This document shows positions 877 to 49,521 of a stretch of DNA of 64,000 bases, in pieces. Origin of the DNA: Girardia tigrina. Lineage: Eukaryota. The stretch spans positions 1-64,000 of the forward strand of contig MQRK01243259.1 in NCBI GenBank assembly GCA_001938485.1, given 5' to 3'. The translations under genes and the position numbers were made by a program. Every line of letters starts with the position of its first letter. The first letter of the stretch is position 1. The notes under the pieces are model-generated. The model was not told the origin of the DNA. It saw nothing but the letters and a program-made list of their open reading frames with translations, and ran no database searches.

Positions 877-1200
877 TTTAAAAACTTTCAACAAAGTTGA
901 TGAGTCACTTGATTGGACAATTATGCAGCAATTTTAAAAAAAATATTGGGAAAGAGTCTCGTGTGAGGCATTAATAATTAAAGCGGTTAATCCTGCAATT
1001 AATGTCCAATCAAGTGACTAGTCAACTTCGTTGAAAGTTTTGGCGTGAAACAGTAATTGCACGATTGATTGCGTTATCATCATTTTAACACATATAAGCT
1101 TAACAGGTACAATCAGAATCTTCTGATGAGGACGGATATTCCATCGACATATATTGCATCAATAAAAAAATTTATTTTAAAATGGCGTCTTCTAATTTTT
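877..1200 (+). mobile_element. 5'-truncated Penelope-like element 3' end with inverted partial repeat and degenerate hammerhead
   Basis: Encodes YWERVSCEALIIKAVNPAINVQ, the GIY-YIG C-terminus, homologous to 20140-20210. About 880-930 is an inverted copy of about 993-1042. ctgatga-g-gacgg..ccatc-gaca at about 1123-1155. Confidence 0.75.
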
Positions 1201-2679
1201 AAAAAACAACTGCCATTGTTCTTTTAAATTTATCAGTAGTACCAAATATTACTTACGCAAATCATTGAATATGAAGAAATGTCACCACTCACCGACAATA
1301 ATAACAATATTATTATAATAAATATAGGTACGAAATATGTGTCGTTGTATTTTTTAAATTATGATCTATTGTAAAAAAAATTTTGTAAATTTTTGTTTTT
1401 GACTACTGTATGTAAAATTTGAGATTAAGAAGAAACAACAAAAATATTCTCTAATGATAAATGAATTTTTGACTTCGCTAAAGTAGTACTTGCATATAAC
1501 TGAGATGTCATTACATATACGTCCAAAACTAAATGTTAGCATAATCAAATAGAAAGGAGTAAATTTAAACTTGGCAAATAAGAGAATAATTTAAGGATAA
1601 AATAATCTATTTTTTATTGTGCATAATTTTTTCTAGTATTTTAATTAGTCTAAAAAGTCTAAATTAGTCTTTTAAGTAGTCTAAAGTAAGTTAAATACAA
1701 TAGAATTAATTTAAGTCTTATGTATACAATCTTTCCTTATTAAACACAATGAGAATAAAATAATCGTTGACTGTTATATTAACAATCTTTTTTTAGCACT
1801 TTTAAAAAATTATTTGGCTAAAGCTATTTAAAAAATGATTATTGTATATGTTTCAAGGTTTTATTATAATAACAATTATAATTTAATATTTTTCAATTAT
1901 TTTTTATGGAATTATTTTTTATTTATTTTTATTTATTCGATATATTATGGGACAATAATGTTGATTTTCTAAGGAAGTCTTGGACTGGGCAACTTCTTAT
2001 TGATAAGTATATCAACAAATCAATACTTGACACTCACCTTCGATCAAAGATTCATCGATCTTGAACTCAAAGACGTTTTTGTTTGATTTATTGACGAACA
2101 ATGCTAAGGTCTCAGCCAACTTTAAACTTGTCGCACCATCAATCGTTTTGGCTGAGGTAATCATATATTTCACGATACATTAGTACCAATCGATAATAGA
2201 TTTAGGAGACGTGAGAACAACAGTAGCTAGCATTGCATCATTCACACTAAGCCTCGATAGCGTCTTGTGTACCTCAGCCGTTTTCTATGCCATTTTGTTG
2301 ATCAGATTGTGGAGAAGCTCGTAAAATCTGGGGTCCATCTTCATGAACCCCTTGATCTCCTTGGTATGCACGTGTAAAGCATGAATCTGCCGTACCTTAA
2401 CCAAGTACCTGACGAGCACCGTCACGTAGTGTCGCTCTACTTCAAACACCTGTTCAATTTGCTAGGAATGGCTCGAGCAAACCAATCAGCAAGCCAAATA
2501 ATACGCTATTCTTCGATGAATTTCGGGATATCCAGCTTTCAAAGTTACTTCCTCTCTCTGTATCTCCAAATATTGTCTCTCGATATCTCCAAATAAAGTA
2601 TTTTCATAGACGAAAAATTCGAATTTTTAACGCTTGCAATTCGACTAGATTTTTATCAAACGCAACGATTAATAATGTA

Positions 2680-3650
2680 AGTAGAAGAAAATGGGCATTC
2701 GGTCCCAAGACTCCCCCCGGGGGGTCACCGTAACCATGGAAAAGGTCGCAACGACCATAGCAGTGGTCATGGTTACCATGGTAACGGTCGAGGTTACCAT
2801 AACAACTTGTGCGGTTCACTTGACAACGTTTCTGATTGGTTCCCGGTAACCTAGCAACGGTCGCGATCACCCAAAAACGTTTCTGATTGGTCGGTGATCC
2901 ACTAGCAACGGTCATGATCACCAAAGCAACAGTTCAGCTTTCCATAGCAACGGTTCTGATTGCCCAGGACAGGCTTTTGATTAGTTCCAAAGTTATTAGT
3001 AACGGTTTCCATTTCCTTGACAACGGTTCCGATCACCTTAACAATGCTTCTCATTGGTTTCTGATACCTTGACAACGGTTCAGATCACCTCAACAACCAA
3101 TCAAATAACTGAAATCCTTGACAACCGTCACTGTTACCTTAAAAATCATCGAAAACACCTTAGAATCACGTTGGCAACCATCGAAATCACGTTAACAACT
3201 ATCGAAAACACCTGAAATTACCTTGACAACCGTCATCGTGACCCTAAAATCACCCAATTCACCTCAACAGACAATCAAATTACGTTGAAAATCATCAAAA
3301 ACACATTATAAACCATAATCGTTACCTTAAACCCATGAAAATCATCTTAAATATCATCAAAAACATGTAAAAACCATCAAAATTACACGAAAATGTGTAA
3401 ATCATTACTGCAGTATGTTGCACTGTGTTAATCAATACTTGCACTAAGCCAAGTCAGGCTGCACATGTGCTAATCAATACTTGCACATGTGCATGTGTGC
3501 AAATTAAAATCCATCAAATTTACCATATCAGTGCCTATGTATGCTGCACTGTGCTAATCAATAATGCATATGTGCTAATCAATGCTGCTCATGTGCAACT
3601 GTGCAAAATCTATAAGTTCACAATTTTGTAGAGTGCAATATATTCATGTT
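2680..3650 (+). repeat. Solo copy of Polinton-like terminal repeat: C6G6 palindrome, 21-bp X-box array, tgcac-rich repeats
   Basis: Colinear homology with 20985-21500, including ccccccgggggg, GTTACCATGGTAAC at 2772-2785, ctgattgg at 2832 and 2883, then gtgctaatc/gcacatgtgc repeats. Confidence 0.75.
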
Positions 3651-6910: not shown

Positions 6911-8469
6911 GTTCGTTTGAAAAATCCAAATGAAAATTGGAAATCTAAAAATAAATATCCAATTAAAAATCATAAAAAACGTTTAAACAGATAATAAAAA
7001 TAACTCACAGCATTGAAGAATAGTTTATATTATAGAAAAGAATGTTCTACCCCTCATACACACAAAACACACATACAATACATACATACAGAGACAAAAA
7101 CACACCTCATACNNNNNNNNNNNNNNNNNNNNNNNNNNNNNNNNNNNNNNNNNNNNNNNNNNNNNNNNNNNNNNNNNNNNNNNNNNNNNNNNNNNNNNNN
7201 NNNNNNNNNNNNNNNNNNNNNNNNNNNNNNNNNNNNNNNNNNNNNNNNNNNNNNNNNNNNNNNNNNNNNNNNNNNNNNNNNNNNNNNNNNNNNNNNNNNN
7301 NNNNNNNNNNNNNNNNNNNNNNNNNNNNNNNNNNNNNNNNNNNNNNNNNNNNNNNNNNNNNNNNNNNNNNNNNNNNNNNNNNNNNNNNNNNNNNNNNNNN
7401 NNNNNNNNNNNNNNNNNNNNNNNNNNNNNNNNNNNNNNNNNNNNNNNNNNNNNNNNNNNNNNNNNNNNNNNNNNNNNNNNNNNNNNNNNNNNNNNNNNNN
7501 NNNNNNNNNNNNNNNNNNNNNNNNNNNNNNNNNNNNNNNNNNNNNNNNNNNNNNNNNNNNNNNNNNNNNNNNNNNNNNNNNNNNNNNNNNNNNNNNNNNN
7601 NNNNNNNNNNNNNNNNNNNNNNNNNNNNNNNNNNNNNNNNNNNNNNNNNNNNNNNNNNNNNNNNNNNNNNNNNNNNNNNNNNNNNNNNNNNNNNNNNNNN
7701 NNNNNNNNNNNNNNNNNNNNNNNNNNNNNNNNNNNNNNNNNNNNNNNNNNNNNNNNNNNNNNNNNNNNNNNNNNNNNNNNNNNNNNNNNNNNNNNNNNNN
7801 NNNNNNNNNNNNNNNNNNNNNNNNNNNNNNNNNNNNNNNNNNNNNNNNNNNNNNNNNNNNNNNNNNNNNNNNNNNNNNNNNNNNNNNNNNNNNNNNNNNN
7901 NNNNNNNNNNNNNNNNNNNNNNNNNNNNNNNNNNNNNNNNNNNNNNNNNNNNNNNNNNNNNNNNNNNNNNNNNNNNNNNNNNNNNNNNNNNNNNNNNNNN
8001 NNNNNNNNNNNNNNNNNNNNNNNNNNNNNNNNNNNNNNNNNNNNNNNNNNNNNNNNNNNNNNNNNNNNNCCAATTGAGGCATTTTTCGCAAAAATGAAGC
8101 GGGAAGTCAGGACTGCAATAACAAACCATCCAGGCCTCCTGACACTAAGCCATCACCAAAGGCTGGTCGTTTTGCAGGAGAAAATCGATGCTGTGGCAGC
8201 AAACGAAAGCAACAAAGATATGTCCAATTACTTCCATCATCCGAAGAAATTCTTTGTTGACTGCATTCTGAAGAACGATATCCACGGTGATTGAATGCAG
8301 AAACATCTTAATTTTTGTTCTGTAAATGTTCTTAAATGTTCTGTNNNNNNNNNNNNNNAAAAAATCTTACTCTTTTAAATTTAACAAATAAATTTATCAG
8401 CCTAATTTAGAAAAAATCAGAATCCGCCATTTTCTCTTAAATGCTGGTTAACTACAGTTAACCACATGA

Positions 8470-10280: not shown

Positions 10281-10729
10281 GATACATACTACTGCTAAAA
10301 TTTTATAAATAAAATTGCCAAGGACCAAAACGGCTGGGACAAAAACAGTGAGAGACCAAAACGGAGGTACCAAAACAGTATGTACCCCAACCAGACATGA
10401 CGAAACACTTATACTTTGTAATCTCTTATTGCGCGTTAGCCATCCGGCTTATTTTGATCAATTAAGGGATGTCTAGACCGATAATTGATACTTATTACTG
10501 CACTTCCGCAATAAACGACTGTCTTTACCCATATAAACGTCTATGAGAAGACAGTGTGAACCACCAGTTCGCTACCCTGGAGGTGACCATGTTTGAACCC
10601 ACATACAATTATCCTAAGAACGACTGAAGTTTTGAAAGTAGAAATCTGCTGCCTTCACTTTACTTCTTCTGTATTCAGGGAATGACTTATCACTACCAGA
10701 CCTGTTACACGAACTTTCTTTATTGTTAT

Positions 10730-13301
10730 CGTGGCGTCGATCTTGGGGGGCGAAGGGGCGGCCGCCCCCCAATATTAATTGTAGGTGGCGAAAGAATCTT
10801 TAAATCTCATATAGAGTTTGATATTATCGGTAGTAAAGATTAATACATTGATAGGAATGATATAATGCTTACCATTAAAATAAAAGCAGTTGATGAACCA
10901 AGAAAATACATTACTGTTGACATTACAATATTAACACCGAGCAATTACCTCTTTCATTGCTTATTTAAAGATATGACCTTGTTTCTCAATAATACAAAGA
11001 TTGAGGACACTAATGATAGTTATTATCAAAAGGCTATCATTGAGACTACATTTAATTTAAGTTCAGATACGAAGATTGCGTTTCTCAAGTACATGGGGTA
11101 TGGTGAGGCAACTGAAAGAGTCAAATCCCCCCCCCCAATAATTTGCATAACTTTTTCGAATTATCACTCATTTTACCATTTTAAATTTAAGCTTTTCCCG
11201 TTTGGTACAGCATATCGGTACTGTTTTGTAATTTAGTTAAGTCGATAAAATTTGCAAATTAAATGAAAAGAGAACGAATTATTGTTGGAAATTAAAAATT
11301 TGACTTAATAAAATCTGTAATTGTACATATAAAAAAATTGTGATTTTAAAGGAAAAGTTTTTTGTGAAATTATTATTATTATTATACGTAAAATTGTATT
11401 TTATTAAAAATTATTATTATCTGAAAGTAAAATTACATTTTTGTTTGAACTCTAATTTGACTTCGTTGATGTTGTAAAAAGTTTTAAAAGTTGTGACTTT
11501 GGTAAAAAAATACTTTTTGTGAAATTTTTAAAGAGTTCATCAACTTCTGTTCTTGTGATTTATAACTCTAATCTATTATGATGCAAATTAGTAATTTTCA
11601 AAACTATTCTGATACCATCATACATTTTGAATAAACTTAAATTTATTTTTTTTATCAATTTATTTTATCGACACTTTTTTCAAGAGTGCTACAACCGGTC
11701 ATTCGACTCCCATCACTGACTGCTATCCAACCCCAACAACAGGGGACACCCATGACGGCCACGAGATGATATCGAGTTGTTCTTCAAGTCAGTCAACTGA
11801 TAAATTTGAGATTGTCGCAGAACTTCCTCTGAAAAAGACAAAGGCGATCCACTTAGTCTACGCAGAGAACCTAATCAAACAAGTACTGCTACTTTCACTG
11901 TCTCGGAGAAGAAATGGCGATTTTTTTCTGCTTAGCATAAACTTTTTACCTGGCTGGAATTGGATGAAGAAGTTGAAGCTGCCTTCTGCCACCAATGCAG
12001 ACAACTGCACCAACAAGGAGTCAGTAGTTATGTCAAAAGCGAGGCGGCATTTACTACCAAGGTCTTCACAAATTGGAAAAAGGCAACCCAGCGTTTTGGG
12101 AATTATGCGAGGAGTCTTTCGCACTGTCAATCTGCCTACAAGTTCTCGAATCTCTTGAAAGGTAGCAATATTTTCAACCAATTGAATATTCAAAATGAAG
12201 CTGAAAGAAAGAGGGTCAAAGAATGCTTAATGCAGGTGTTTTTCTCACTTCTGTTTCTTGAGCGACAAGGCCTCAATATTCGTGGACATGAAGATGTGAA
12301 CGGCAATTTCAAGCAGTTATTAAAGCTCCAATGTGGTGACTCAAGTGATTTACTTCTCTGGTTAAATAGAAAGAGCACATGGACATCAGTAGAAATCCAG
12401 GAAGAAATTCTACAGAGCATGTCCCTTACCATTATTCTCTATTTCGCAAAATAAAGAAAGGAAAGAAAATATTTAAGCATCATTGCTGATTAAACAGCAG
12501 ACTTCAGCAGTTAGGAGAAGCTGACGGTCTGCCTTCAAACAGTAAATGATAACTTTGATTTGGAAGAAACGTTTTTTGGAACGTACTCACTTGATCGTTT
12601 TGATAGCCCAACAATTTCCAGGTCCATTGAAGATATTTTATTTCGACTGAATTTGGAAATGAAGGATCATGGATTGCCTTTTGGATCGTGTATGTCATCA
12701 TTATGCGGAAGAATTGGACAAGCAGCGATTGGCCGCCAAGCTCCTTGGGTTAAAGCACCTTCGACCTGCTGGAAAGGAAAACATCACTACCATCCCCATG
12801 TAGATCATGATACGAATTAGTAGCACCCAAGTGACGCATATGATTCCGAGGGTGGTCCCTTTCATAAAAATTTATTTGGTCTGCCCAGCCACAACTGCAA
12901 CCGGCGAGTTACTTTAAGCCAGCTGAAGCTTCTCAAAACTCGCGTGAGAAGCACTATGCTCCAAGAGAGAACGAATCACCTTCTCGTCCCGAGGAGGTTT
13001 ACAACCTACAATTGAAGAAGTTGATTTATGAATTTATTCAGAAAAAGGATCTTCGTCGCAAGACGTTTGTTATAATTACTTGAAAATTTTGTGGACGAAG
13101 AATAAATTGTTAGTATTTGGATTTTGTTTTTTTACATTATGTCATGTGTCTACAGCACAGTTACTGGGAACCAGTAGGTAAATTAGTACCGTATAATTTT
13201 GTAAGCACGAGGATGTCAATTAGTGAAATTGATCAAACTAAAAATGCGATCTGCACATCTCGCCCTTACCCCTCAATAATGAAATCATATCGACGCCACT
13301 G
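10730..13301 (+). mobile_element. Internally deleted hAT element (TTF-zinc finger/DUF4371-type transposase)
   Basis: TIRs gtggcgtcgat / atcgacgccactg. ORF 11960-12454 has AFCHQC..FTNWKKA..H, RQGLNIRGHE..GNF and TSVEIQEEI. C-terminal remnant near 12900-13070. Confidence 0.85.
10801..11126 (+). pseudogene. Polinton major capsid gene fragment captured inside hAT subterminal region
   Basis: Near-identical to the reverse complement of about 23880-24198 (PSNYLFHCLFKDMTLFLNNTKIEDTNDSYYQKAIIETTFN). Confidence 0.9.
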
Positions 13302-14527: not shown

Positions 14528-16211
14528 TTTTTTTTCTCTGTGAGCAAAAGTGCCCGGTTGGTACATAAATAAATTCGCCGCATGCATCGGCCCTAAGGCA
14601 TCCTCTGCACCGGCCCTGGTTTCCACAGTTTCACTAGCGACCTCCCCCCGCACCCATCACTTGGGTGAACGTCTCCGCCAAGCCCGACACTTTTGCTCAC
14701 ACACCTGATCTTAACAATCCATCCTCAAAAATCAAGTCCTCTTCCCATGATGAGTTGTCTTCATCCTCAGATGGATCTCCAATCCTCGACCTATATAGAT
14801 TGGAGACATGCTCATCTTCAGATGGATCATGATCCTCAATGTCTATGACTCCCCCCTGTTGCACTCCTACTCTATAGCTATAAGATTGTACAAGTGCTTC
14901 CATGGCGGCCGGATCAAATTATTCTACCCCCTCAGGAACAGCATGTTCATATTCCATCTCTTCCATTGCTAACATGCCTTCCTGAGGTTCTTCTATTTCC
15001 TGTATATTAATCTTACTTATTCTCTGGATTCCGCTTTGAACTATTCCATGACGGCGATAAGGCCATTGTGCTGTGGAGTATTTCACATTCGATACTGAGC
15101 AACCAATTGCAATCTGTCTTATCACCTTTGGCGGGATCTTTAGAGTTGTCAGTATACCAGTGCTCCTTTTCGGCCACGTCCCTAGGCACCCTACCTGGAG
15201 GGTGAGCACTGTCACTGTCGTGTTTGGCATTGCAGCCGTGCAAGCAACAGTAAGAACCTCGTAATGATCGAGATTCTTTTGGTTGCTATTCTCCCTTTTC
15301 TTCTTCGTGTCATATGGACACTTGACATCTATCAGGTATAACATCTTAGATCCTTGGATGTATATCTGAAGATCAACTCGGTATTGTGAAGGAGCATATC
15401 GACACTCAACATTTATGTCGACTTTGCAGTCCAAATACTGAATGATTTGCTCCCTCACACAATAAAGGACCGAGTTGTGCGTATAATTCCAGAACCCTTC
15501 GCTGTATTTACATCCTGTAAGTACATGGACCAAAATTTCCTCATTATGAGGGCACCTACGAAAGTGTCCCCTGTTCTTAGTGATATCCTGTCGGTAGTTA
15601 ACAGGCACTGTGTAAGTCATTGCTTTGTGGTAAAAGTACCACTCGCTATAATTCAGCCTCCCCCCATAAACAGCGCTGTGGAAGCTGATTGTGGATTGCA
15701 AGCTTCTTGCAATCCGTCCAGCGCTGCTTTGTATGTTCCATTTGTGTGTCCAAGATTTCTCTACCAATCTTCTTATTGTCTTGGACACACTGGACTTCAA
15801 GAGGGGGGTGAGGAGCATATTATCACTCGTTTCGTCTCTCATAACTTCAATTTCGCCATTGAGCAGTCTTCTCTCCCACACCAGTGACTGATGCAGGTGC
15901 AGACATATGCCCTGTTCATTCTGCACTAGACTACCCGAAATCTGGTTTCTTAATCTTATAAATGGCGAACTTGATTTTCGCCCACCAGTTTTTGATCTTC
16001 CCCGACTGCATCCCAGCGTTTAGCCAGCGTATTGCTGCCTTAATCGACAAGAGACGTGTCTTTTGGGGGCCTGTCGCTCCACGCTGAAGGGAGAAGACTG
16101 CACCATCCATCGTTGTCGTATCACTACACGCAATCATTTGTAAACTGTGGACCAGTGACTGTATCAAATATTCGTCAAGTAACGATTTGATACAGACAAT
16201 TACAATTTTTA
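14528..16211 (-). mobile_element. 5'-truncated non-LTR retrotransposon with restriction-like endonuclease (NeSL/R2/R4-type)
   Basis: ORF 14919-15926 has a degenerate CCHC (RRCPHNEEILVHVLTGC), HN, RVDL and IDVKCPYD motifs. Poly(A) at about 14528-14536. 13-bp TSD accataattacaa at 14515-14527 and 16212-16224. Confidence 0.88.
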
Positions 16212-16224
16212 ACCATAATTACAA

Positions 16225-16673
16225 CCCAAGGAGCTTGGCGGCCAATCGACGCTTGTCCAATTCTTCCACATAATGATGGAATACACGATCCAAAAGGCAG
16301 TGCACGATACATAGTGTTTCCCTCTCCAGCTGTCCATAATAATTTTCTCCGTAGCTATCAAGACTGATATTGCCTAGTTCTCTATTCCCTCCTTCAGTTT
16401 ACACAGAATGCTATCGAGCGCCTCGAAATAAACCAATCAGTAATAGTCCTTTGTAGTTGAAAAGTGATGTTGTTTACTGTGATGTTAATGTATTTTTTTA
16501 AACCAAAGTCACAACTTTTTGACCTTTTTACAACTTCAACAAAGCCAAATTAAAGCGTTCAAACAAAAAAGCAATTTTCGTTTTACATAATAATAATTTT
16601 TAATAAAATACAGTTTTACAAATAATAATAATACTTTCACAAAAACTTTTCCTATAAAATCACAATTTTATAC

Positions 16674-16724
<51 letters not shown>

Positions 16725-17069
16725 NNNNNNNNNNNNNNNNNNNNNNNNNNNNNNNNNNNNNNNNNNNNNNNNNNTATATATATATATATATATACAATTA
16801 CATTTTCTATTAAGTCAAATTTTTTATTTCCATCAATAAATCGCACGCTCTTTTCATTTAATTTGCAAATGCTACCGACTAAACCAAATTACAAAACAGT
16901 ACCGAATATGCTGTACTAACGGGAAAGGCCTATATTTAAAATGATAAAATGAGTGATAATTTCAAAAGGTTATGCAAATTATTGGAGGGGGGGGGCAAAA
17001 GATACTCTCGCCCCTAAAATTAATATTATGGGAGACCTCCCATTCTCCCCCCTTAAATCGATGCCACTG
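16225..17069 (-). mobile_element. Second, heavily deleted copy of the 10730-13301 hAT family
   Basis: TIR atcgatgccactg ending at 17069. Subterminal homology to 10730-11560. 16225-16300 matches 12675-12750. A (TA)n tract lies inside. Confidence 0.8.
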
Positions 17070-19385: not shown

Positions 19386-19713
19386 AAGAAAGCGCTTTTC
19401 GTGCCTATTCGAAGATAGAGAAGATCAAGGCTACTTGGTGAATTGTAAAAATTTTGTTTCCTATTTTTTTACTATTACTATTAATATTTAAAGATGTAAA
19501 CTTTATAAAGTGATTTCAATCACGTATTAAAAGGTTATTTTTAAGATAACTTCGCAAATTGATAATGTTTTACATATTACTTTAAATATTTTAATTTGCT
19601 TTCCTAAAAAAGTTTTGTCAAAAGAGTAATATGATTAAAATTGCTCTAACATTATCAAAAATATGACTTTATTTATTAATAACACCACTCATCCATTAAA
19701 GAATATATTTCAA

Positions 19714-19752
19714 GACAATATATTTCGACGGATCTACCGTCATCTTCAGGTC
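19714..19752 (-). ncRNA. Minimal type I hammerhead ribozyme (Penelope-associated)
   Basis: gac-CUGAAGA-u-gacgg-uagau-ccguc-GAAA-uaua-UU-guc. Confidence 0.7.
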
Positions 19753-20317
19753 ACTAATTAATAATCAATTCACCCGTATATAAATACAAATTGTACCTTA
19801 TTCTGAAGGATTTAAAAACTTTAAAAATGCATTGTTAAAAGCATCTAACAATAAATTAAATTTAAAAATTACATCACGATCTTATAAAATTCAAAATATG
19901 TTCAGTAATAATCAGTAATAATCTATTACACCTTTAACACTTTGTTCTGATATTGTTTATGAATATAAATGTAATGGGTGCGATGCCACATACATTGGAG
20001 AGACTGCCCGTCATCTCTGTAAACGAATTCAAGAACATGGTCGAAAAGAGAGTAAGAGTAATATTGCAGAACATAGGAAAAATGTAAATGTGATGTTAAT
20101 TTTGATAATTTCAAAATTCTGTGTAAGTATTTTGACATTTATTGGGAGAGAGTGTCGTGTGAAGCATTGTTAATTAGGTCACGTTGCCCTAAAATCAATG
20201 TTCAATCGACAGTCTCAATCAGCTTATTGAGAATTTTTGATTAGCATGATTTCACGCAATCGATTACATAATCATCATTTTTGTATTTATATACAGGTGA
20301 ATTGATTATTAATTGGT

Positions 20318-20355
20318 GACCTGAAGATGACGGTAGTTCCGTCGAAATATATTTT
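20318..20355 (+). ncRNA. Minimal hammerhead ribozyme core, stem I 3' arm lost
   Basis: gac-CUGAAGA-u-gacgg-uaguu-ccguc-GAAA-uaua-uu. Confidence 0.55.
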
Positions 20356-20984
20356 TAAATGGATGAGTGTTGTTATTAAAAGAAAATTTTCTTTCGGATT
20401 TCGTTATATTTATTAAATTTTATTTTTTGAATATTGTTTGGCATGCAATAGGTCGGTGGGCCTCACGCTGCACTACTTAATTGTGCGGAGTTTCACCGGC
20501 TCCAGGAAGTCCCTTCAGTTATTCCTGAAGACGCACGGTGCGGTCACCTCAGTGTCCGTGATGGGGGGGTTACTCTTCCAAGAGATAAGTGCCGGGGGTT
20601 TGACGGTTCCACTCTGGGTCGCAGACTGACAATCCACGGCCGGGTCAATGGTGACCGATAATTTCGATTACCGAAGAGTCCCTTGGATTGGGCCAAAGAA
20701 TGTATTGCGTGTGCTCTATCCTATGTGTGAGAGAACACATGTACATTTGACTTGTGCCCACACTTATTCCGCAAGAAACCGACCGAAGTGAATTCGATAA
20801 CACGGTGTTCGAACTCTCGGTAGTAACAACAAACATTGCTTTAGTTACAATGCATCTCGAGAGCAAATTAAATACGGCGATAAAATTGTTTTCAATTTAA
20901 ATTCAAACTGTGTAATTCCATTTATTTATTTAAATAAATTACATTTATTTATTTAAACGGGAACTCTCCCTCAATCAATAATTA

Positions 20985-21500
20985 ACCCCCCGGGGGGGTC
21001 CAGTCACCCGTTACCATAGTAACGGTCTCAGTTACCATATCAACGGTCTCGGTTACTATAGCAACGGTTCCAGCTCACTTTGAAACGCTTCTGATTGGTT
21101 CCCGGTACCCTAGCAACGGTCGCGATTACCTAAAAACACTTCTGATTGGTCGGTGGTTCCATAGCAACGGTTGCGATCACTCTAGCAACGGTTCCTATCA
21201 CCCTAGCCCTAGACAGCAACGGTTCCGGTTCACTTGGTAACGATAATCAAGGTCTTAGTTACCATAGCAACGGTAACCAAGGGACGTTTCTCATTAGCAA
21301 CGGATACAGTGATTCAAGGCGGTTGTAACCATGGTAACGGTTACCGTATCCATAGCAGCCGTCATCCTTTCCTTAGCAACCGAAGAAAAAAGTGCTAATA
21401 GATCACTGCACAGTGCCCAGATGTGCTAATCGATAGTGCACATTGTGCCGCACATTTTTATAGTGCTTTTGAAGTTGCACATCTGCAAAAGTGCAAAAAT
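20985..21500 (+). promoter_or_regulatory. Terminal repeat with 21-bp-phased RFX X-box/MYB-like motifs and inverted CCAAT boxes
   Basis: GTTACCATAGTAAC 21010, GTTACCATATCAAC 21031, GTTACTATAGCAAC 21052, GTTACCATAGCAAC 21258 and GTAACCATGGTAAC 21325, each running into AACGGT. CTGATTGG at 21091 and 21142. Regulatory function is inferred. Confidence 0.55.
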
Positions 21501-22131
21501 CAATACATGAAATTTTTTAAAAGTACTAGTGTCAAAAATCGATATCATGTGTTTGATGCACATTTTGATTTTCTATCTGAATGTGCTTTTAGAAATTTCA
21601 TATATTGATTAATTTTCTCTAAAATTAGCATAATGTGCAAATTTACACGAAATGCACATCGATTTTAGAGGTACAAGGAAGCAAAATATCAAAAAAATGC
21701 TGATGCACTTGAATAGTAACCCATATACATTCAGATGCCATAGCAACATTTTCAAAAAAGTGCTGAAATATTGATTTTTTCGAACATTTCTGAAATTCTC
21801 AAAAAAGTGCTCAAAAAACTATTTTTCGTATATATATGAAACCAATGTGTTGTATGTATGTTGTTTACCATCAAACAATATCTCATGAATCGCCTAATGT
21901 ACCTAATCATAAATCACAAGTACCTTGGTTTTCGTAACCAAGATACAACCTTTTAATATAATATATAAAAACCTATGAAACTTATGGATATTAATACCTA
22001 AAACATGCATGGATATTCTACACCAGAAGAATCATTATATTCATTTTTTTATTTATTTGAAGTAACATATTAAAACAAACAATAACTTTAAAAAACATTT
22101 ATTTCTTTGAAATATAATTTTGACACAACGC

Positions 22132-22627
22132 TTAACACCTTTTATAAGCACAATGTGAACCATGTTCACGATATATACATGTAATGTCTTTTGGTATCGC
22201 TTTTAGTTTGTCACATTTATATATACATATTCTCAGATCAGGAAATATAGACTTTATCAACTTTTCCTTTCGTCCATCATCATTATCCTTGACATAGAAC
22301 AATGCTTCAGTTAAATTACATCGTGATCGAATGTATCGCATTAAACAATCCTGACAAAACTTGAAATTGTGTTCTACCCACGTCAATTTATGATGATGTA
22401 ATGTTAAATAAGCATTTGTTCTTTGTGCTTTGTTTAAACAGCAATGTATTTTAGTCTAGAAATTACACCCAAACATTATATTACATTTGCAACACTAATT
22501 TAACTTACTGAAATACATAATGCAATGTATTAAACATATCGTCAACAGACATTATACACAACTCTTTAATCATATCCTCATCATTATCATCCACAAATCT
22601 TTCAAAATAAATAAAGAAGACAGGCAT
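22132..22627 (-). pseudogene. Polinton accessory protein (exonuclease-like N-terminus, C-terminal Cys/His cluster)
   Basis: MPVFFIYFE/RFVDDNDEDMIKELCIM...HYVF, then FYVKD..EK..., C..L.....C..REHGSHCA. Recognised by recall as a Polinton-associated family. Frameshifted. Confidence 0.55.
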
Positions 22628-22665
22628 TTTTCAACAAAAGCAATTTATTAACATAATAACTTTTT

Positions 22666-23005
22666 TTATAACAATTGGCGTTTAAGCCAGTCTATACAAT
22701 AATTTCCACAAAGAAATGTTTAGCGGATTTTGATACATTACATCATTATATATGTCAGGTTGTTGCATTCGTTCCAATTTTGTTATCAACGTTGATGGGC
22801 AATACATCCCAAGTGGATCGAATACTCGTATAAGATCTGAAGTCACATGTACTGCAATCCAGTGTTCTCCTAGTAAATTAGCAGTCTGAGTATTAATTAC
22901 ATATCCTCCATCGAGTAGATAATCTGGAACTTTTATCCAGCGAATATACTCCACGGAATTGACGATATCCTTTCAGTGCTTTTTCAATCTGATATGTACT
23001 ATATA
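22666..23005 (-). pseudogene. Adenain-like cysteine protease (Polinton PRO)
   Basis: TYQIEKALKGYRQFRGVYSLD / VINTQ..GEHWIAV...FDPLG...YQ / LCGNYC. The His, Asp, Gln and Cys catalytic residues are spread over two frameshifts. Confidence 0.85.
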
Positions 23006-23087
23006 TGTAAATATAAAAGGTTTAGACACAACTTACTTCATATATTATTTCTGTTCGTAATTGCTGTTTTCAGTTCTAATGCTGTGT

Positions 23088-24308
23088 TTATACAATAACT
23101 GTACCATCTTTTCGTATTTATATCTCACTATCAAATACTCCATATACATACGTTGTAATTGAATTATATAATGCCTTATGGAATCTTAAATACAATTTTA
23201 AATTGCCTGTTCGTGGCATTTGCATTTGATCAACATCAAAATCAGGTGCCAAGTCAAATGTAAAGCAGGGGTATTTTGTTTTGAAATCAACCATAGTGAT
23301 TTCATTATTCATATTTTTCTTCACGAGTACCATATTCAATATTATAGACTTGTAGTATGCTTCAGTAAAATCATTCTTTTCAAAGTCAATTTTATATGAA
23401 TCTCTAAAATCAATTCCTCGATATAGGGTTAGGGAGCTAATATTACAGTTGTCAAATGCAGAGCAATATGTTTCGTAATCTACACGAACTTTTTTACTAT
23501 CTTAAAATGTTACCAATACAAATTTTGCTAAACGTTCATCACTAAACAGATTGTCCTTGTATTCACCACGTGATCCTTTACGAATTGAAAACTGAACAAT
23601 TTTTGTTTTTCGAATGGAATATATAGCATTTTGATTATCAAGACCCATAATATGATTCTGTTGTGCGAACACGCCGTATTAATAACTTTGCACTTTCAAT
23701 ATATATTTTAGGCTTAATCTCTGTTTCAGTACCAGTCTTTTCATATTGAAAGATAACTTTACTTTCATTTCGATGAATCTTGATTGTTATATTGACATTT
23801 GGTATGAGATATTTTGGCTGCTCAAAAAAGTCCAGATTTAACGATCCGCATAATGTCATCAAGGCTGATTTCTTCAACCATTTGACTCTTTCAGTTGCCT
23901 CACCATACCTCATGTACTTGAGAAACGTAATCTTCGTATCTGAACTTAAATTAAATGTAGTCTCAATGATAGCCTTTTGATAATAACTATCATTAGTGTC
24001 CTCAATCTTTGTATTATTGAGAAACAAGGTCATATCTTTAAATAAGCAATGAAAGAGGTAATTGCTCGGTGTTAATTTTGTAATGTCTTTTCCTGATTCA
24101 TCAACTGCTTTTATTTTAATGGTAAGCATTTATATAAGCAATTCATATCAATGTATTCCTCTTTACTACCGATAATATCAAACTCTATATGAGATTTATT
24201 ATACCCACTAATACTATCTTTGGGGTAAATATCTTCAAAAGCATATGATTCTATAACAACTTGTGGTGGAGCTGAACTACATATGTCCAATTGCGATTTA
24301 GCACTCAT
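23088..24308 (-). pseudogene. Polinton/adintovirus major capsid protein
   Basis: MSAKSQLDIC..PPQVVIE...IEFDI...EYID, HCLFKD..LFLN, LNLDFFEQPKYLIPNVNITIKIHRN, DNLF, FTFDLAPD, GNLKLYLRF, YGVFD. About 400 codons with stops and frameshifts. Confidence 0.88.
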
Positions 24309-24309
24309 T

Positions 24310-24490
24310 CTGATAATATCGTTTTCATACGTTTTGTTTCTTTGTTTATATCTAAGCCTTTTTTCTTTTCTTCCTCCACCACCTTGATCCATTATTGAAA
24401 CGGCTTCACGAAAAGCACCTTTAGCATTGTACTTAATTTCTGCCAATATCTCAGCAGCAGCTTCCTTTAATGCTTCAACAGGTTTTTTAA
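24310..24490 (-). pseudogene. C-terminal part of basic GxG core-like protein upstream of the capsid gene
   Basis: ..MDQGGGGRKEKRLRYKQRNKTYENDII abutting the capsid start. 5' end replaced by a terminal-repeat fragment. Confidence 0.5.
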
Positions 24491-24599
24491 TTGCTGATGA
24501 GAAACGTCCCTTGGTTACCGTTGCTATGTACATATGAGAGTGTGCATGCGCACTGAAGGCAAGTAGAAGTGTTATAATGTGATTTTATGTTTAGTAATT

Positions 24600-27148
24600 A
24601 TTAGACGTTCTTGGAACATCGTCGGAATTATTACTATGAGATATTTCTGACATCAAAACTTTTACTATTCCACACAAAAAATGTTTAAATTTAATATTTA
24701 AACAAACTTATTATTTTTCTTTTGAGAAACAATTTGTTTTATAAATCTTAAACCGATATAAATAAAAATACTTAAATATTCATATTTGATTTTTTTCATT
24801 ACTTTTATAAATCAATTTTAAATTACGATAACATTTTAACACATTTAATCGTTTCTATAATTATATTAATTTTTTTAAAATCGTTCCACATATAAAAATT
24901 ATACATTTTAATTTTTATATTATATTAAAAACTCTCAAAAATTGTTATTATTTGCAATTTAATTGATCTTCTTAATTTTAGTAATTTTAATTTTTAAAAC
25001 GTTACATATTTAATTATATAAAAATTTTCATTTGTATATATTTAATATAACCTCCTTTCAAAAATTTTCATAGCATTTTTAATTCCTAACATTCCCCTTT
25101 TTCTTTCAAATTGTTGAACTTTTCGACATTTCTTACTATTTGTTTTTTCACTTTATCCTCAAGTTTATAATTCCTCTCATGTATTTTGTCTATTATGGTG
25201 TATGGTCCCTCATATCTGTCATCATCTTTATTTCTTATCCTTTTTTTACAAGGTGTGGACCTTATTTCCGATATTGAAATTTCATTCTGTTTTTCCGTCT
25301 GGATACTTGATGTTTTCGTCTGACGTGTTCATTTTATTGCTAACCACTTCAGTCTATCTATTTTTCTATTTAAAATTACTTCAGCCGGACTTCTTCCAAT
25401 TGTTTTCTGGCGTGTTGTATTTAATGTGAATTCCAACTTTGGCAGCAAATCAGCCCAACTTGTCTCTTTTCTTTTTTTTAAACTTACTTGGATATACTAT
25501 CATATCGTTTGGAATTGTCTATCCACTATATCATTGGTGTTATGGTGGTACGGACTAGAGAAAACTAACTGAATACCTTGTTTTCTCATTAATTCTTGTA
25601 CTTTCTGTGATTCAAAAAAATCCTCATGTATTTCCTTAGGAGCACCAAATTTTAATATCCATTTTGTTAAAATCGTTTGTATAATCGTCTGTTCATCTTG
25701 TCTTTTGATGGCTGTTAAAATAATATATTTGCTAAAATGATCAATCATGGCCATTATATATTTTTCTTTTCTTATTGTTTCTCTCCATGGGCCACATATA
25801 TCGATGTATACTTTCTCAAACGGTTCAGATGATGTTATCTTGATTGTCTCTTCTTTAGTCTACGACGTATCTGCTTTTGTTTTTTGACATTCTTTACAAG
25901 TTCCAACTACTTCTTTCACTGTTTTGCATTCCTCTTCCATCTCAAATTTATCCTTTAAATAATGGTAAACTTTTTCCGCTTCTGCATGACATAACAATCT
26001 ATGTGTCTGTGCGATTAATTCACTTATTTTCTCTTTGGGTATATATTCTCTGTGTGCTTCATTTGCCTGCCTTCTTGTTATAACCGCTATTAATCGTGTT
26101 TTAAATCTGTCTGATTTTGCGTCTTCATGTTACATTTGACAATGGGCACATGTGTCACATTTGCTTCGAGACAGCATATCTGCATTTCCATGTATTTCAC
26201 CTTTTCTGTATACCATCTCTATATCCAAACTACTGAGATAATTGATCCATGTCTGAAACTAGGCTGTTATTGGTTTTTTTGTATGTAACATAAAAGTGAC
26301 GGCTTAATGATCTGTCCTTAGTTTAAATCTTTTCCCCTATAAATGATTAAAATGTTGACAAAAATAATAAATGGCCAAAAGTTCTTTCCTTGTTATACAA
26401 TATCCTTTTGCAAGAGCTCCCATCGAATGTGAGCCATAAGCTATTACATGTTCTATTTCGGATTCGCCAACTTGTGACAGTACTGCTCCTATACTATCAA
26501 AACGGGTATCCGTATCCAAAATAAACTCTTTATTGAAGTTCGAGAATGCTAAAATCGGGGCTGTTATGAGGGATTTCTTCATATCGTTAAAAGCTAGTTC
26601 ACATGAGTCCACCCATACTAGTTTATCTTAATTCGATCCACATAACCCTTCTAGCGCCCTGGCCTTTTTGGGGTACCCATTTATGAATCACCTATAGTAG
26701 TTAAATATTCCCAGAAAACTTCTCAAATTTTTCATGCAGTTTGGTCTCTGGAATCCTTCAATTGCTTTAATTTTATCTGGATCCGTGTGAATACCTTCTC
26801 TTTTTACTACATTTCCTAAGAATTTTACCTCATCCTTTAAAAATTTGCATTTAGATGGTTTTATTCTTAAATTAGCTTTCTCAATTTGTTGGAAAACTTC
26901 ACCCAATACTTTATAATGTTCTTCTATGGTCTGAGTTGCTATCAATATATCATCCATATATACTGACGTTCTTTTCAACTCTCAAAAAATTGTTATTATT
27001 TGCAATTTAATTGATCTTAATTTTAGTAGTTTTATTTTTTAAAACTTTATTTTTTATTTTTTATATTTAATGATGTAAAAATTTTCATTTGTACATATTT
27101 AATATAACCTTCTTTCAAAACTTTTCATAGCATTTTTAATTCCTAACA
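24600..27148 (-). mobile_element. Gypsy LTR retrotransposon with large internal deletion
   Basis: RT (YMDDIL), RNase H (FILDTD..IGAVLSQ, ELLAI) and integrase (IDHFSKY, SPYHH) fragments. LTR starts TGTTAGGAATT at 27148 and 25091. Polypurine tract at 25092-25105. Direct repeat about 24930-25091 / 26978-27148. Left boundary approximate. Confidence 0.88.
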
Positions 27149-31999: not shown

Positions 32000-34121
32000 C
32001 AGGGCGTCCCGCAGGATATGCCTTCGCTAATTCTGATGTTAAATTGAAGTTTAGCGTCTATATATTGTATAGTGGCAAATGATTTTTTTTAAAAAATCTA
32101 GCATCATATAACAAATTACTTAACAAATTTTTCAAAAAATTTTGGAAAAACAAGTTAAATAATGACTCATTTTATAGATTATTCAATTTTAAACAACTTT
32201 TTTGAAGTCCACATATGCGCTAAAATGAACAGTAACAAAGTTATTCAATAAATTATAAGTTTTAAAAATTTTGATCCCTAGAGTCCATATTGTTTCTTTA
32301 GAGTATGTTTTAGTTTCGACAGTGCTCAAGTTTCATCGTTATTCATCTGTATTCTACAGAACAACGACGTTTTATGGTTTTATTTTATCGGGATACGAAT
32401 TCACCATCAGAAGCGATTAAATTATTCAAGAAAAAGTTTTAAAATCACCAAAATATAGATCCAAAGACATTTAAAATGTTAGTAAAGGCATTTAAAATGA
32501 ATTAAAGTATTTTTATCATTATTTTAGAGTATTTGACAAATTTATGACTACTGGTAGCGTAATGGACCATAAAGAAGGGATTCAAACGAAGAAAAATACG
32601 GATATTGCCGAAGAAAATGTTAAGAAAGTTGAGGAATTGATCAAGCAAAGCCCTTCAACATCGATTAGAATGGAAAGCAAGCAACTGAACATCAGCTAAT
32701 CACCGGTACAAAGAATTATCAAAATCGAAACATGTCCAATAGTTGTATTAAAAAAGCTTTGATCAAATTATATTTTCGAAATACTAAACTTGCGTTCACA
32801 AGACTCAATATTATACACAACGAAGCTGTGAATCTTATGAATCGCGTCTTATGGGGCTGAAGTTCAAAAACTCGCAGTTTAAACCGCTCGAATTCGTACG
32901 CTTCCCCGACCGTAAAGTAAGTCGTCTACAAACGATTTAATGCCAACACGTAAATCANNNNNNNNNNNNNNNNNNNNNNNNNNNNNNNNNNNNNNNNNNN
33001 NNNNNNNNNNNNNNNNNNNNNNNNNNNNNNNNNNNNNNNNNNNNNNNNNNNNNNNNNNNNNNNNNNNNNNNNNNNNNNNNNNNNNNNNNNNNNNNNNNNN
33101 NNNNNNNNNNNNNNNNNNNNNNNNNNNNNNNNNNNNNNNNNNNNNNNNNNNNNNNNNNNNNNNNNNNNNNNNNNNNNNNNNNNNNNNNNNNNNNNNNNNN
33201 NNNNNNNNNNNNNNNNNNNNNNNNNNNNNNNNNNNNNNNNNNNNNNNNNNNNNNNNNNNNNNNNNNNNNNNNNNNNNNNNNNNNNNNNNNNNNNNNNNNN
33301 NNNNNNNNNNNNNNNNNNNNNNNNNCAAAATTGTAGAATTTGGGGATCAGAAAGTCCACATTATTTAATTATTAAATCCTTGCATCCGAAATGATTATCT
33401 GTCTGGTGTGGTATATCTTCAGAAATGATTATTGGACCGGTTATCTTTTCTGAAAATATTAAATCAACGGTTTATTTAAACATTCTTCAAGAACAAATGG
33501 TACCTTATTTGTATGATTTTGGAAAAATAAGCGACTTTTATTTCATGCAAGATGGTGCTAAACCGCATAAAACATGCGATGTATGTTATTATCTTTCAGA
33601 ACATTTCGACGCTCGAATAATTGCATTGGATTCAGAGAAATTTACTGGTAAAGGAATATGTTGGCCTCCTTATTCACCTGATTTGAATCCATGCGATTAT
33701 TTTCTTTGGGGATTCATAAAGGATGGTATTTATAGAACTCCGGTGGTTAATTTGGAAGATTTAAAAAATCGAATTGAAGCCAGGATTCGAGAGATCATTC
33801 CTGAAATGTTAAAAAGAGTTGTAAACAACTTTGAGCAACGATTATGAAATGTAATTGTTTCATAAGGATCTCACTTTGAAAATCTTTTATATTAATAAAT
33901 ATTGTTTTTTTATTGAATAACTTTATTACTGTTCATTTTATGGCATATGTTTACTTCAAAAAAGTTGTTTAAAATTGAATAATCTATAAAATAAGTCATT
34001 ATTTAACTTGTTCTTCCAAAAATTTTTGAAAAATTTGTTACATAATTTTTTATATAATGCTAGATTTGTAAAAAAAAATTATTAGTCAATATACAATATA
34101 AAGACCCTGTGGGACACCCTG
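32000..34121 (+). mobile_element. Tc1/mariner (rosa-like) element with long TIRs, interrupted by insertions and a gap
   Basis: TA-CAGGGCGTCCC ... GGGACACCCTG-TA. Long imperfect TIRs. FMQDGAKPH...WPPYSPDLNPCDYFLWG. Confidence 0.9.
32724..32812 (+). mobile_element. Short Penelope-like 3' tail inserted in the Tc1/mariner element
   Basis: Near-identical to about 37516-37605 (atcgaaacatgtccaatagttgtat...agactcaata). Confidence 0.8.
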
Positions 34122-43422: not shown

Positions 43423-45758
43423 CAGTTTTCCTAGACAACATAGTTCGATTCTTACTCAGTTTTGGTATCATGTTCTTGGGCTCACAAAAATTTCAGTACC
43501 TTGTGGTGGCTTGAAACGATTCAATACATTTTTAACTCATTTATCATTGTGGACCGAAATCGACGCCGCCACGTCTCAAACCGCGGTGCACTAGTCGACG
43601 GAGTGAGCCGGTGTCGTGTGCGGGGATCGACCATCGGGATCCTATCAGCTCGAGCGGTATTCACTACTTCGAACCCGGCAATGTACAACGGAGATTTGGC
43701 ATTAACCGGCCGGGGTATCAATCCGAAACAACCTGCCTACCGCGAAGCTTACAATACATGGGATGTTTAAACTGCAATAACTTTTATAGCAAAACAACAT
43801 GAAAAAATGGTTTTAAATAACAAAAAAGCATTTATTTAAATTTAATAATATTCAACAGAATAACCATCAACATCAATACAATGTTTAAGGCGTCCATGAA
43901 AAGACTTAATGGCATTTTGGCACATTTCACCATCTATTTTCTCCGCTTCTTGACAAATAAAATTTTTAAGTACCTGAATTGTTTCTGGTTTTCTCTTATA
44001 CACTTTATTCTTCAAAAAATCAAGTGGTGTCAAATCAGGTGACCTGACTGGCCAAACATGTGGACCAAATCGTCCGAGCCAACGTTGTGGAAACGCTCAT
44101 CCAGAAATTGTCACACAATCATTGAATAATTGGCAGGTGCTCCATCTTGGTGGAATACAGCTTTCCGTTTGCATGTTCTTGATAACGATGGCATAAAGCA
44201 ACTTTTTAACATATCCAGGTAAAGTGCCGCTGTTATGTTTCCTTCAATAAAAAAGGGTCCATAAACACGAGTTGAAGACAACCCCATCCAAACATTAACT
44301 GTTTCACTAGCCTGTGACCTCTGATATGCTTCAGTTGGTATTTCAGTGCCCCAAATGTGACAGTTATGTCTGTTTACAACGTCGTTAAGATGGAAAGTTG
44401 ACTCATCAGAGAATATCAGGTTACTAAGAAAATTTTCATCTACATCTATCGATTGAATTAACGTTTCACACATAAAACGTCTAAGAAAGCAATCTTATTC
44501 ATTCAAAAGTTGCGTGGCTTGAATTTTTTAGTAGAACATTTTTAAGTCATTTTGTAATACTTTTTGAACAGTCCCATAAGAGCAATTCAGAATTGACAAT
44601 GACTTCCTGATAGAAGGCTAGGGTTCTTGCTCAAAATGTTCTGCTATCTCATATTTCTTTTCATCATCAATTGGTGGTCTTCCAGATTTTGGGGCATTCC
44701 TGTTTCTTCAAACTTTTTGAAGATGCTTCTAATACTTTTTTCGGTTGGAATATTTTTCCATTTAAGTCGTTGAAGTTTTCTTCTTACTAAAGTCACTGAC
44801 TCATGCTTCGCAAATAAAATAACACTTTTTATACGCTGATTTACATCAATTTTGAATCTTACGCTTAAAACAATAGCAACAATTAACGGATAACATCAAA
44901 TAGTAGGTGGACATGAAATAGTAGGTGTAATGAAGTTTTCAAAAAATTTTCCACCTACTATTAAAATAGTAGGTGGAATCAAATAGTAGGTGTATCGTTT
45001 TTAAAGCAATTTATAAAAAAAATATTTTTAAAAATGAAAAAAGAACTTTATAAAAATTAAAAAATGTGTCATAAAATCGATGTGGGCTGATGGCAGAAAA
45101 TCGAAGCCAGTTGTATTATATAAAGGTAAACAGACGAACGACTTTAAGATAAATGGGAATATTTATAGTGTAGCACAAGATAAAGCATGGGTTANNNNNN
45201 NNNNNNNNNNNNNNNNNNNNNNNNNNNNNNNNNNNNNNNNNNNNNNNNNNNNNNNNNNNNNNNNNNNNNNNNNNNNNNNNNNNAGACAAGTTCAAAACAA
45301 AAGCACCAAATAGTAGGTGTAAACCAATATTGGGCGCCTTTTCAATTTTTTTCCATCTACTATTAAAATAGTAGGTGTCCTACTATTTCATGTTATCCGT
45401 TAATACATTTAAAAAAATATACTTTTAATTAAATTTTAAAGAATAAGCTTCAAGATGCCTTTATAATTAAAACGAAATACATTATAATTCAAGTTATTGC
45501 AAAATAAATTTTATAATGCATATTAAACATTGAAGAAGGAGCCATGGTGCAAATAAATCTCTTATCTTAAATAAAGTTTCTTTGAAAACACTTTTTTGAG
45601 TTTATCATTTTAATATTTGAAATTTTAATGTACATGTATCACCAATTTGACATGAAAGGGTTTAGCAAATGGTATCAAACTACATATTCTTAAAGTGTTC
45701 AAAGCGTTCTTGCAATAACTCAGGGGACACTAGATTGAGTAGATTTTCTAGGAAACTG
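43423..45758 (-). mobile_element. Tc1/mariner DD41D (rosa-type) element, pseudogenised, with nested insertions
   Basis: FSDESTFHL..VNRHN, FHQDGAPA...WPVRSPDLTPLDF. Short TIRs cagttttcctaga / tctaggaaactg. Confidence 0.8.
44884..45402 (+). mobile_element. pogo/Tigger-like element (gapped) nested in the DD41D element
   Basis: TIRs taacggataacatcaaatagtagg / cctactatttcatgttatccgtta. ADGRKSKPVVLYKGK...QDKAWV. Confidence 0.75.
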
Positions 45759-45924: not shown

Positions 45925-46500
45925 CACCGCCCTACCAAAAGTCACCGACCACCGGTGTGTTCGCAGTAATGAGAGATTATGAGAATTTTTAAACGAATGA
46001 TATATTTACAAAAAATAGAATGTATAATATTAATGAATTTTTAATTCTTTGTACAGTGGTCCTTTGCATTTTATAACCTCTTTCACTCTATCTGGCATCG
46101 AGTTGACGACACTAGCTAGGAAGTCCAGAGGAATATTGCGCCACTCTTCCTGAAGGTATTCTGCTAGGACAGCAAGAGAAGACGGTAGAGGGCGTCTTCG
46201 ACGGATTCGCTTCTCCAACTCCTCCCAAAGTTTNNNNNNNNNNNNNNNNNNNNNNNNNNNNNNNNNNNNNNNNNNNNNNNNNNNNNNNNNNNNNNNNNNN
46301 NNNNNNNNNNNNNNNNNNNNNNNNNNNNNNNNNNNNNNNNNNNNNNNNNNNNNNNNNNNNNNNNNNNNNNNNNNNNNNNNNNNNNNNNNNATTAATATTA
46401 TACATTCTATTTTTTGTAAATATATCATTCGTTTAAAAATTCTCATAATCTCTCATTACTGCGAACACACCGGTGGTCGGTGACTTTTGGTAGGGCGGTG
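45925..46500 (-). mobile_element. Tc1-type element with about 110-bp perfect TIRs (gapped)
   Basis: TA-CACCGCCCTACCAAAAGT ... GTAGGGCGGTG-TA. LWEELEKRI...LQEEWRNIP...SMPDRVKEVIKCKG. Confidence 0.85.
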
Positions 46501-47845: not shown

Positions 47846-48267
47846 ACATTAAACTTATGATAATAAAGATACAATAAAAATTTAATCAATTGATAAAATA
47901 TTATTTCCTTCCTACACAGGTCACGGGTGTTCCTTGTACCTGAGTCTAAAAATTAAATCTTTGAAATCAAATGAAAAATAAATTAAAAAATTCAAAATTT
48001 ATAGTAATGAGACTCAAAAAACTAAATATCATTTCCGGTGAAATTTAAAAATTTAAACTATTTTGTTAATAATTTTTATTATTTATTTCACTAAAAAAAT
48101 ATATATATAAATAATATTTTCTTGCAAAATTAAGTTTCCTTTAGTGTTATTGGTTGATAATAATTATATTTTCTTAAATACGATTAGTTGACGAAATTAA
48201 AGGAAAATATCATTTTATATTATATTTATGTGATTCTAGTAATATTTTTAAGCTTCTTAACCGTATA

Positions 48268-49521
48268 ATGATTCCTCAGTGTTCCCCTGACGATCAATAC
48301 TCATTTTTAAAAACAAATTTTGTAAAATACTTTGTTTCCTGGAGTTTTGCCCTACTTAGTTTAGCAGGGATATTCGGAAGTATACTTTGTATTATAGTTA
48401 TAATAAAACACCGAGTTTTTGTACATGGTACTCGGTACTGGTTTATTTATTTATCCATGAGTGATATTCTAATGTTGGCATTTCCCGCGATGGATTTATA
48501 TCTTTATTGTATGATTGGAAATTATTATATAATTATATTATCGAAATTGAGTGTTTTTGGTTGTGAACTTCGAAATTGTGCGATAAACTTTTTTGCTTGG
48601 ACTGCAAACGTTCTTCAAGCTGGTTTATCTATTGAAAGAACAATCAGTGTTGTTAATCCAATGCGCTCAAGAATAATTTTTACAACAGGACGAACGAAAC
48701 TTATTATTGGAATTCTAATATCTATCAGCTTCATTTCGTCATCTTTTATCAATTTTCTGACATTTAAACGTGTTAACGGAACGTGTACACGTCCGACCCA
48801 CCCCAATGCGTCTATTGATGTCACTCGTATTGTGTATTCAATAGATCTTATAATATTTAGAGCCATACCCTTTTTAGTGATGCTTATTTCTTCAATTGTT
48901 ATTATAATCCTTATGAAGTATCATGGTCGAAAACGTGAACGCATCGGCCACCAACCCGGAAATTTTAATTCAAAATCGCAATTAAAGAATAGAGAATTTA
49001 AAATGTCTGTAATATTAATTTCCATGAATATGGCGACTTTGATAACGAACCCTTTATTTTTGATATTCGAACTAGTCGATGGTGCGGGATCAGAAGGTCA
49101 AACCTATGGAAAGCTAACGAACAATTATTGCATCTCAGATTTTTTAATCCTTCTTTTCAATTTTTTGATTTATTTCAATAATCAAACGAATTGGATATTC
49201 TACGTCCTCATCGGAGCGAAATTCCAACATTATTTTCTTTTAATTTTGTCCAATTTATTTCCATTTTTCAAAAAAGAAAGCGAAGATTCAAACAGTTTAC
49301 CCTACGAGTCGACGGCAGTGGCCGATAAAAAACTACTGAAAAATTCGGATTTCCTAATTCCCAACAAAATCCAAAATCTGAATTTGGAAAGGAAATTCTC
49401 TTGTTTATGTTGGAAAATTAAAAAACGTAATTTACATTACAATAAGGAAAATTTAGGAGAATCAAATATGAATCAAGAAAACGAAACAGAAATCGTTGCT
49501 TTGATACATACGACTCTTTAG
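48268..49521 (+). CDS. Intronless rhodopsin-class (family A) orphan GPCR, peptide-receptor-like, 417 aa
   Basis: Seven hydrophobic segments. TM2 LSMSD, TM3 GC...SIERT followed by VVNPMR, TM5 IPF, TM6 NP, TM7 NWIFY..GAKF. Uninterrupted ORF with aataaa downstream. Confidence 0.92.
   Translation: MIPQCSPDDQYSFLKTNFVKYFVSWSFALLSLAGIFGSILCIIVIIKHRVFVHGTRYWFIYLSMSDILMLAFPAMDLYLYCMIGNYYIIILSKLSVFGCELRNCAINFFAWTANVLQAGLSIERTISVVNPMRSRIIFTTGRTKLIIGILISISFISSSFINFLTFKRVNGTCTRPTHPNASIDVTRIVYSIDLIIFRAIPFLVMLISSIVIIILMKYHGRKRERIGHQPGNFNSKSQLKNREFKMSVILISMNMATLITNPLFLIFELVDGAGSEGQTYGKLTNNYCISDFLILLFNFLIYFNNQTNWIFYVLIGAKFQHYFLLILSNLFPFFKKESEDSNSLPYESTAVADKKLLKNSDFLIPNKIQNLNLERKFSCLCWKIKKRNLHYNKENLGESNMNQENETEIVALIHTTL

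Follow-up and report, generated by a model that had tools for sequence, protein, structure and literature searches.

In PMC8097293, vertebrate Mavericks are described as carrying a small PW-position gene between the minor and major capsid genes; intact elements are intronless and 96% of copies are degraded. Introns in Maverick-like elements are reported from dinoflagellates (PMC11957031), planarian Polintons are reported to be targets of PIWI-interacting RNA (piRNA) and SMEDWI-2 that are desilenced during differentiation (PMC8532177), and MAEL appears four times as a gene label on the adintovirus maps of Supplementary Figure S2 in PMC8502044 (2021). Here we analysed a window of 64,000 nucleotides (nt) from Girardia tigrina (contig MQRK01243259.1, positions 1 to 64,000). 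Its minus strand very probably carries, at 22,092-24,489, a truncated and mutationally broken capsid module of a Polinton/Maverick (adintovirus) family. This 2.4-kb relic is the dead remnant of an element that belongs to a known kind (class Polintoviricetes), and it may belong to a planarian Polinton family that has already been catalogued.

The module aligns in one piece to a metagenomic contig, L001 (positions 1,018-3,436; 83.4% nucleotide identity over 2,440 nt). The order of genes in L001 is a penton-like gene with its 5′ end cut off (assigned by position and similarity only), a gene for a basic GxG protein of 130 amino acids, a gene for a major capsid protein (MCP) of 413 amino acids, a protease gene and a nuclease-like gene. 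An earlier note, made from the window sequence, had proposed a colinear minus-strand run of GxG, capsid, adenain and exonuclease-like genes at 20,985-24,560, and had read it as the relic of a capsid-encoding Polinton or adintovirus. The relic and its colinearity hold up, given the double jelly-roll fold, the adenain match and a gene order like that of complete relatives. The extent does not: only the 3′ remnant of the GxG gene is present, and viral homology covers 22,092-24,489, while 20,985 to about 22,050 is a repeat.

The broken MCP gene lies at 23,088-24,308 on the minus strand, with frame breaks near 24,130-24,140 and 23,650 and an in-frame stop near 23,500. Read through these in three frames, 24,308-23,091 spans the intact 413-residue relative P0001 end to end at 78-93% identity. 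An AlphaFold2 model of P0001 built from 118 aligned sequences (pLDDT 94.6) resembled the double jelly-roll capsid proteins of iridovirus, PBCV-1, Sputnik and mavirus (best Foldseek E-value 4.8e-16, TM score about 0.6), so the fold expected by the earlier note is the one predicted for this intact relative. An MCP profile matched 7,363 proteins at an E-value of 0.001; thus, the family is large.

Upstream of the MCP gene, the 3′ half of the GxG gene occupies 24,310-24,489 (minus strand; breaks near 24,350-24,370), in the PW position between the minor and major capsid genes. The homology begins mid-gene, without the N-terminal glycine motifs conserved in 13 relatives, and the first residues of the 157-residue open reading frame (ORF) that covers it derive from a 38-nt piece of repeat, described below. 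By analogy, the intact GxG protein is likely to be a DNA-binding core protein and a protease substrate.

The third gene, at 22,666-23,041 on the minus strand, encodes a broken maturation protease of the adenain (peptidase C5) type, with frame breaks near 22,930 and 22,720. As had been noticed in the unaligned sequence, the catalytic-type residues can be recovered across frameshifts: H, D and Q share one frame, and C lies in the next frame past the break near 22,720. A profile of 13 protease sequences matched adenovirus proteases (E-value 1.5e-5) and S273R of African swine fever virus with H, D, Q and C aligned, in agreement with the predicted C5 similarity.

The 5′ end of this gene appears to be split. 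In 14 of the 16 loci whose sequence continues beyond the MCP gene (some 10 distinct sequences), the protease would start with an ATG in an exon of 5-8 nt, followed by a phase-compatible GT-AG intron of 37-47 nt; the remaining two have an in-frame methionine equally far from the first protease motif. The window copy has a predicted first exon of 5 nt and a short intron, with the donor retained at 23,036. A second candidate intron, specific to this lineage, falls in the nuclease-like gene (L001 3,029-3,071; window 22,508-22,456), where it separates two tblastn blocks matched by intronless relatives. The predicted introns coincide with the missing start of the protease and with one apparent frame change of the nuclease-like gene. 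Weighing against them, contigs from the two RNA-type runs cross both sites unspliced, although these contigs may represent DNA or unspliced RNA. A conserved intron in a maturation protease, if real, is a testable lead.

The last gene of the module (22,099-22,627, minus strand) is a broken Maelstrom-like gene of the DnaQ fold, which its relatives match in two tblastn blocks on either side of the predicted intron. It has a frame break beside the intron acceptor, stops prematurely near 22,133 and has lost the first acidic motif residue. We modelled an intact relative, P0216, which adopted a DnaQ/DEDD fold and ranked Maelstrom (MAEL) first in VIA-align and Foldseek, by a small margin over other DEDD proteins. 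With motifs assigned from secondary structure, the second acidic position is Gln in 12 of 15 family members and the presumed later motifs are Lys/Arg and non-Asp in all 15, so the family does not have the four acidic residues of a canonical DEDDh exonuclease. E27 on strand 2, C125, H130 and C134, candidates for the ECHC zinc tetrad of MAEL, are conserved, and C139 is also invariant. The incomplete DEDD set points to a probable RNA-binding pseudonuclease, and the product is likely a zinc-stabilised, Maelstrom-type RNA-binding protein and not an active DEDD exonuclease. Of the exonuclease-like gene that had been proposed here, the DnaQ fold is therefore retained and the activity is likely absent.

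The MAEL domain (PDB 9NHC, 4YBG, 5AF0) and the exonuclease domain of the arenavirus nucleoprotein share with this family the DnaQ/DEDD fold, a conserved strand-2 Glu and a Cys-His-Cys group near the last helix. Metazoan MAEL likewise has an incomplete DEDD set, and the residues of Bombyx MAEL (D122, N124, E137, R306) resemble the family's pattern. The family differs from these domains in its length (about 150 residues vs. about 240-260), in its low identity to them (11-17%) and in having neither an HMG box nor a Pfam match; none of the 15 members matched Pfam PF13017 (MAEL domain), and an Atlas feature score of 0.85 for the MAEL domain is a lead only. Could the gene instead encode an ordinary, active DEDDh 3′-5′ exonuclease that is not particularly related to Maelstrom? 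DnaQ-family nucleases come close behind MAEL in the structure scores, the Atlas structure neighbours are RNase_T clusters (TM 0.72), and the arenavirus nucleoprotein is reported to combine the zinc site with activity (PMC4408791). However, the Gln in 12 of 15 members, the missing Asp at the later motifs and the Bombyx-like pattern make this rather unlikely.

Frame breaks or stops are present in all four window genes, and this copy of the module is likely inactive now. An excess of third-position changes could speak for a capsid module domesticated by the host and still working, but such an excess is expected from the element's active phase, and with every gene interrupted we consider domestication extremely improbable.

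The module contains no pPolB, integrase or ATPase gene, as the earlier note had observed. In tblastn searches of the whole window with 12 queries (polymerases, ATPases, integrases, pentons and accessory proteins; E-value 0.1), no pPolB, ATPase or penton was detected; the sole match was that of an integrase query to the rve domain at 25,218-25,790, which lies inside a Gypsy-type pol relic. That relic (reverse transcriptase, RNase H, rve, SH3) extends over 24,930-27,148 and is flanked by direct repeats of about 170 nt that are 86% identical.

These genes do adjoin the capsid module in more distant relatives. Among 25 related loci with 43-47% MCP identity to P0001 (from few samples, near duplicates included), an integrase is found in 11, an ATPase in 7 and pPolB in 5; two loci carry integrase as well as pPolB. 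Their overall gene order is ATPase, small ORF, integrase, penton(s), GxG, MCP, protease, nuclease-like gene, pPolB. Pfam matches support the integrase of L007 (rve, 1.3e-12) and the ATPase (Pox_A32, 4.8e-6). In L007 and L013 (about 46% capsid identity), the capsid genes adjoin integrase, ATPase and polymerase. The linkage foreseen by the earlier note thus exists at this distance; contigs of the nearest family, at 4.3 kb or less, are too short to carry it, and for that family we infer linkage to pPolB by analogy. Deletions in a full element likely produced the relic, with loss of the polymerase at one end and of the penton, integrase and ATPase at the opposite end. Judging by homology, the parent element would have been copied by its protein-primed polymerase and integrated by its rve integrase, and its MCP and penton would have assembled into a double jelly-roll capsid matured by the adenain protease.

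Several of these relatives have further features. A TATA-binding-protein-like gene (Pfam TBP, 5e-18) occurs in the complete-looking L007, L012 and L013, and L007 also encodes a ubiquitin-conjugating enzyme (1.7e-12); coordinates given jointly for the two kinds of gene are L007 222-719 and 2,420-2,869 and L013 2,175-2,621. Tandem pairs of penton-like genes are found in L006, L007 (5,616-7,687) and L020. Positions 1-400 of L008 hold what we take to be a bacterial membrane-enzyme gene, which suggests that L008 is a chimeric assembly.

Intact relatives, which the earlier note expected elsewhere in the genome, were found in part: public assemblies hold 20 uninterrupted 413-residue MCPs from the two nearest clusters, and copies in four sequencing runs (X1, X2, X5 and X14) differ from the window at three breaks, near 22,720, 22,930 and 24,130. 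No sequencing run contains half of the window's sampled words, and among the copies in these contigs there is no 15-20 kb element with terminal inverted repeats and a target-site duplication. In addition, X14 and X5 contigs depart from the window at 24,428 and continue into an L001-like, intact GxG sequence. Together, these differences indicate that the truncation and the breaks belong to this copy or to a subset of copies.

On its other side, the module adjoins an interspersed repeat of about 1 kb with subunits of about 21 bp (20,985 to about 22,050), which starts sharply at a C6-G7 run. A second copy (2,713 to about 3,650) starts at a C6-G6 run and has no adjoining viral gene; the main copy is 78.6% identical to 2,754-2,935 over 182 nt. 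The C6-G run occurs only twice in the window, at 20,987 and 2,714. Positions 20,985-21,400 contain many X-box-like (RFX) and CCAAT motifs: using an X-box pattern that we assume to be the standard one, 8 matches were counted in 416 nt vs. 0.096 in 500 shuffles, a count inflated by the tandem units. The ten G residues that end contig L016 beyond pPolB (7,473-7,482) match the G-run at the end of the window repeat in side and strand, and may be an assembly artefact.

The earlier note took this sequence for a terminal repeat. The main copy does stop about 40-120 nt from the edge of the module, and a 38-nt inverted copy of 21,263-21,300 (37 of 38 positions identical) sits at 24,491-24,528, exactly where viral homology stops, so that the pair resembles terminal repeats. 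We give about one chance in two to the repeat being the element's own terminus, in which case this abundant, X-box-rich sequence may also be its promoter. Several observations weigh against this: no second full arm is present, the copy at 2,713 stands alone, no target-site duplication was found in the window for either copy (the second end being missing), and the repeat is absent from all related loci examined. Its summed contig depth, which is not a copy number, also exceeds that of the module by several-fold to 30-fold in all four runs. The end motif of vertebrate Mavericks (AGT/AG/AC) as given in PMC8097293 differs from the C6-G run.

The solitary copy and the high depth would fit a high-copy element of separate origin (MITE-like or piggyBac-like) that landed next to a Polinton fragment or captured one, the 38-nt piece being repair filler. 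TTAA precedes the C-run in one copy (copy A), and the second arm is only 38 nt long; yet copy B has no TTAA, no matching right end was found in the window, and repeat sequence abuts both edges of viral homology in inverted orientation. This explanation is a serious contender, if a little short of an even bet. The repeat sequence at both edges, together with the numerous related contigs that cover the module in X1 and X2, might also suggest a mobile, non-autonomous mini-Polinton. In it the capsid module would lie between terminal repeats and be moved in trans by full elements, and many copies would share identical junctions. Here again the left arm is just 38 nt; moreover, L001 and the X14 and X5 contigs run into an intact GxG gene rather than the repeat, and the joint between module and repeat is absent among the 15 joints listed of 881. 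We regard a mini-Polinton as improbable.

A second MCP fragment (residues about 38-145) lies at 10,801-11,126 on the plus strand, 92% identical to 23,880-24,198 and 86.8% identical to L001 without gaps; it is possibly a captured piece. Within 10,720-12,820, a short G/C-rich palindrome precedes it and a C-run follows, and nearby sequence recurs inverted at 16,495-16,993. ORF pieces downstream resemble a hAT-type transposase.

Elsewhere in the window, 20,364-20,840 is GC-richer, of low depth and without a long ORF; the contig that covers it in X1 and X2 shows only one difference. A GIY-YIG fragment between inverted repeats (19,676-20,379; Pfam E-value 2.7e-4), which we assume to be Penelope-like, has high depth in DNA runs. 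A 366-codon open frame on the minus strand (14,919-16,019) contains Cys/His and restriction-like endonuclease motifs but has no Pfam match; we take it to resemble the 3′ end of an R2-type non-LTR element. An intronless, rhodopsin-family G-protein-coupled receptor gene (48,178-49,521, plus strand; 7tm_1, 6.4e-12) had three matches, of which the two that are named are flatworm proteins; this single gene supports the flatworm-like character that the earlier note gave the genome. By eye, putative Tc1/mariner-like and LTR-integrase-like ORF relics lie at 33,395-33,847, 44,111-44,494, 46,030-46,452, 61,436-61,906 and 56,956-58,301.

Decayed Polintons like the locus itself are usual; its value rests more on the gene resembling MAEL, on the predicted introns and on the adjoining repeat. 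In an animal whose Polintons are known piRNA targets, a small virus-borne Maelstrom-type protein could be a counter-silencing factor or a clue to the origin of MAEL. An unlikely but broader scheme is that the Polintons of flatworms encode a minimal mimic of Maelstrom that counters PIWI/piRNA silencing, that their ends, arrays of RFX X-boxes and CCAAT motifs, switch them on in differentiating ciliated or sperm cells, and that these ends spread alone as a very abundant repeat.

Compared with adintoviruses and Polintons as described in PMC8502044, PMC11161782 and 10.1101/2023.08.22.554363, the module has the same double jelly-roll MCP and adenain protease, and its relatives add the penton, rve integrase, packaging ATPase and pPolB; the window copy differs in being a broken 2.4-kb fragment. 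PLA2X, GasderminX and Cupiennin were not identified, although no profile search was aimed at them, and the searched part of the PMC8502044 supplement contains no flatworm names. Relative to vertebrate Mavericks, the loci studied here differ in the protease intron predicted in most of them, where intact vertebrate elements are described as intronless, and in having their genes on one strand with the ATPase. They share with them the degraded state of most copies and the same order of integrase, minor capsid gene, PW-position gene, MCP and protease (PMC8097293).
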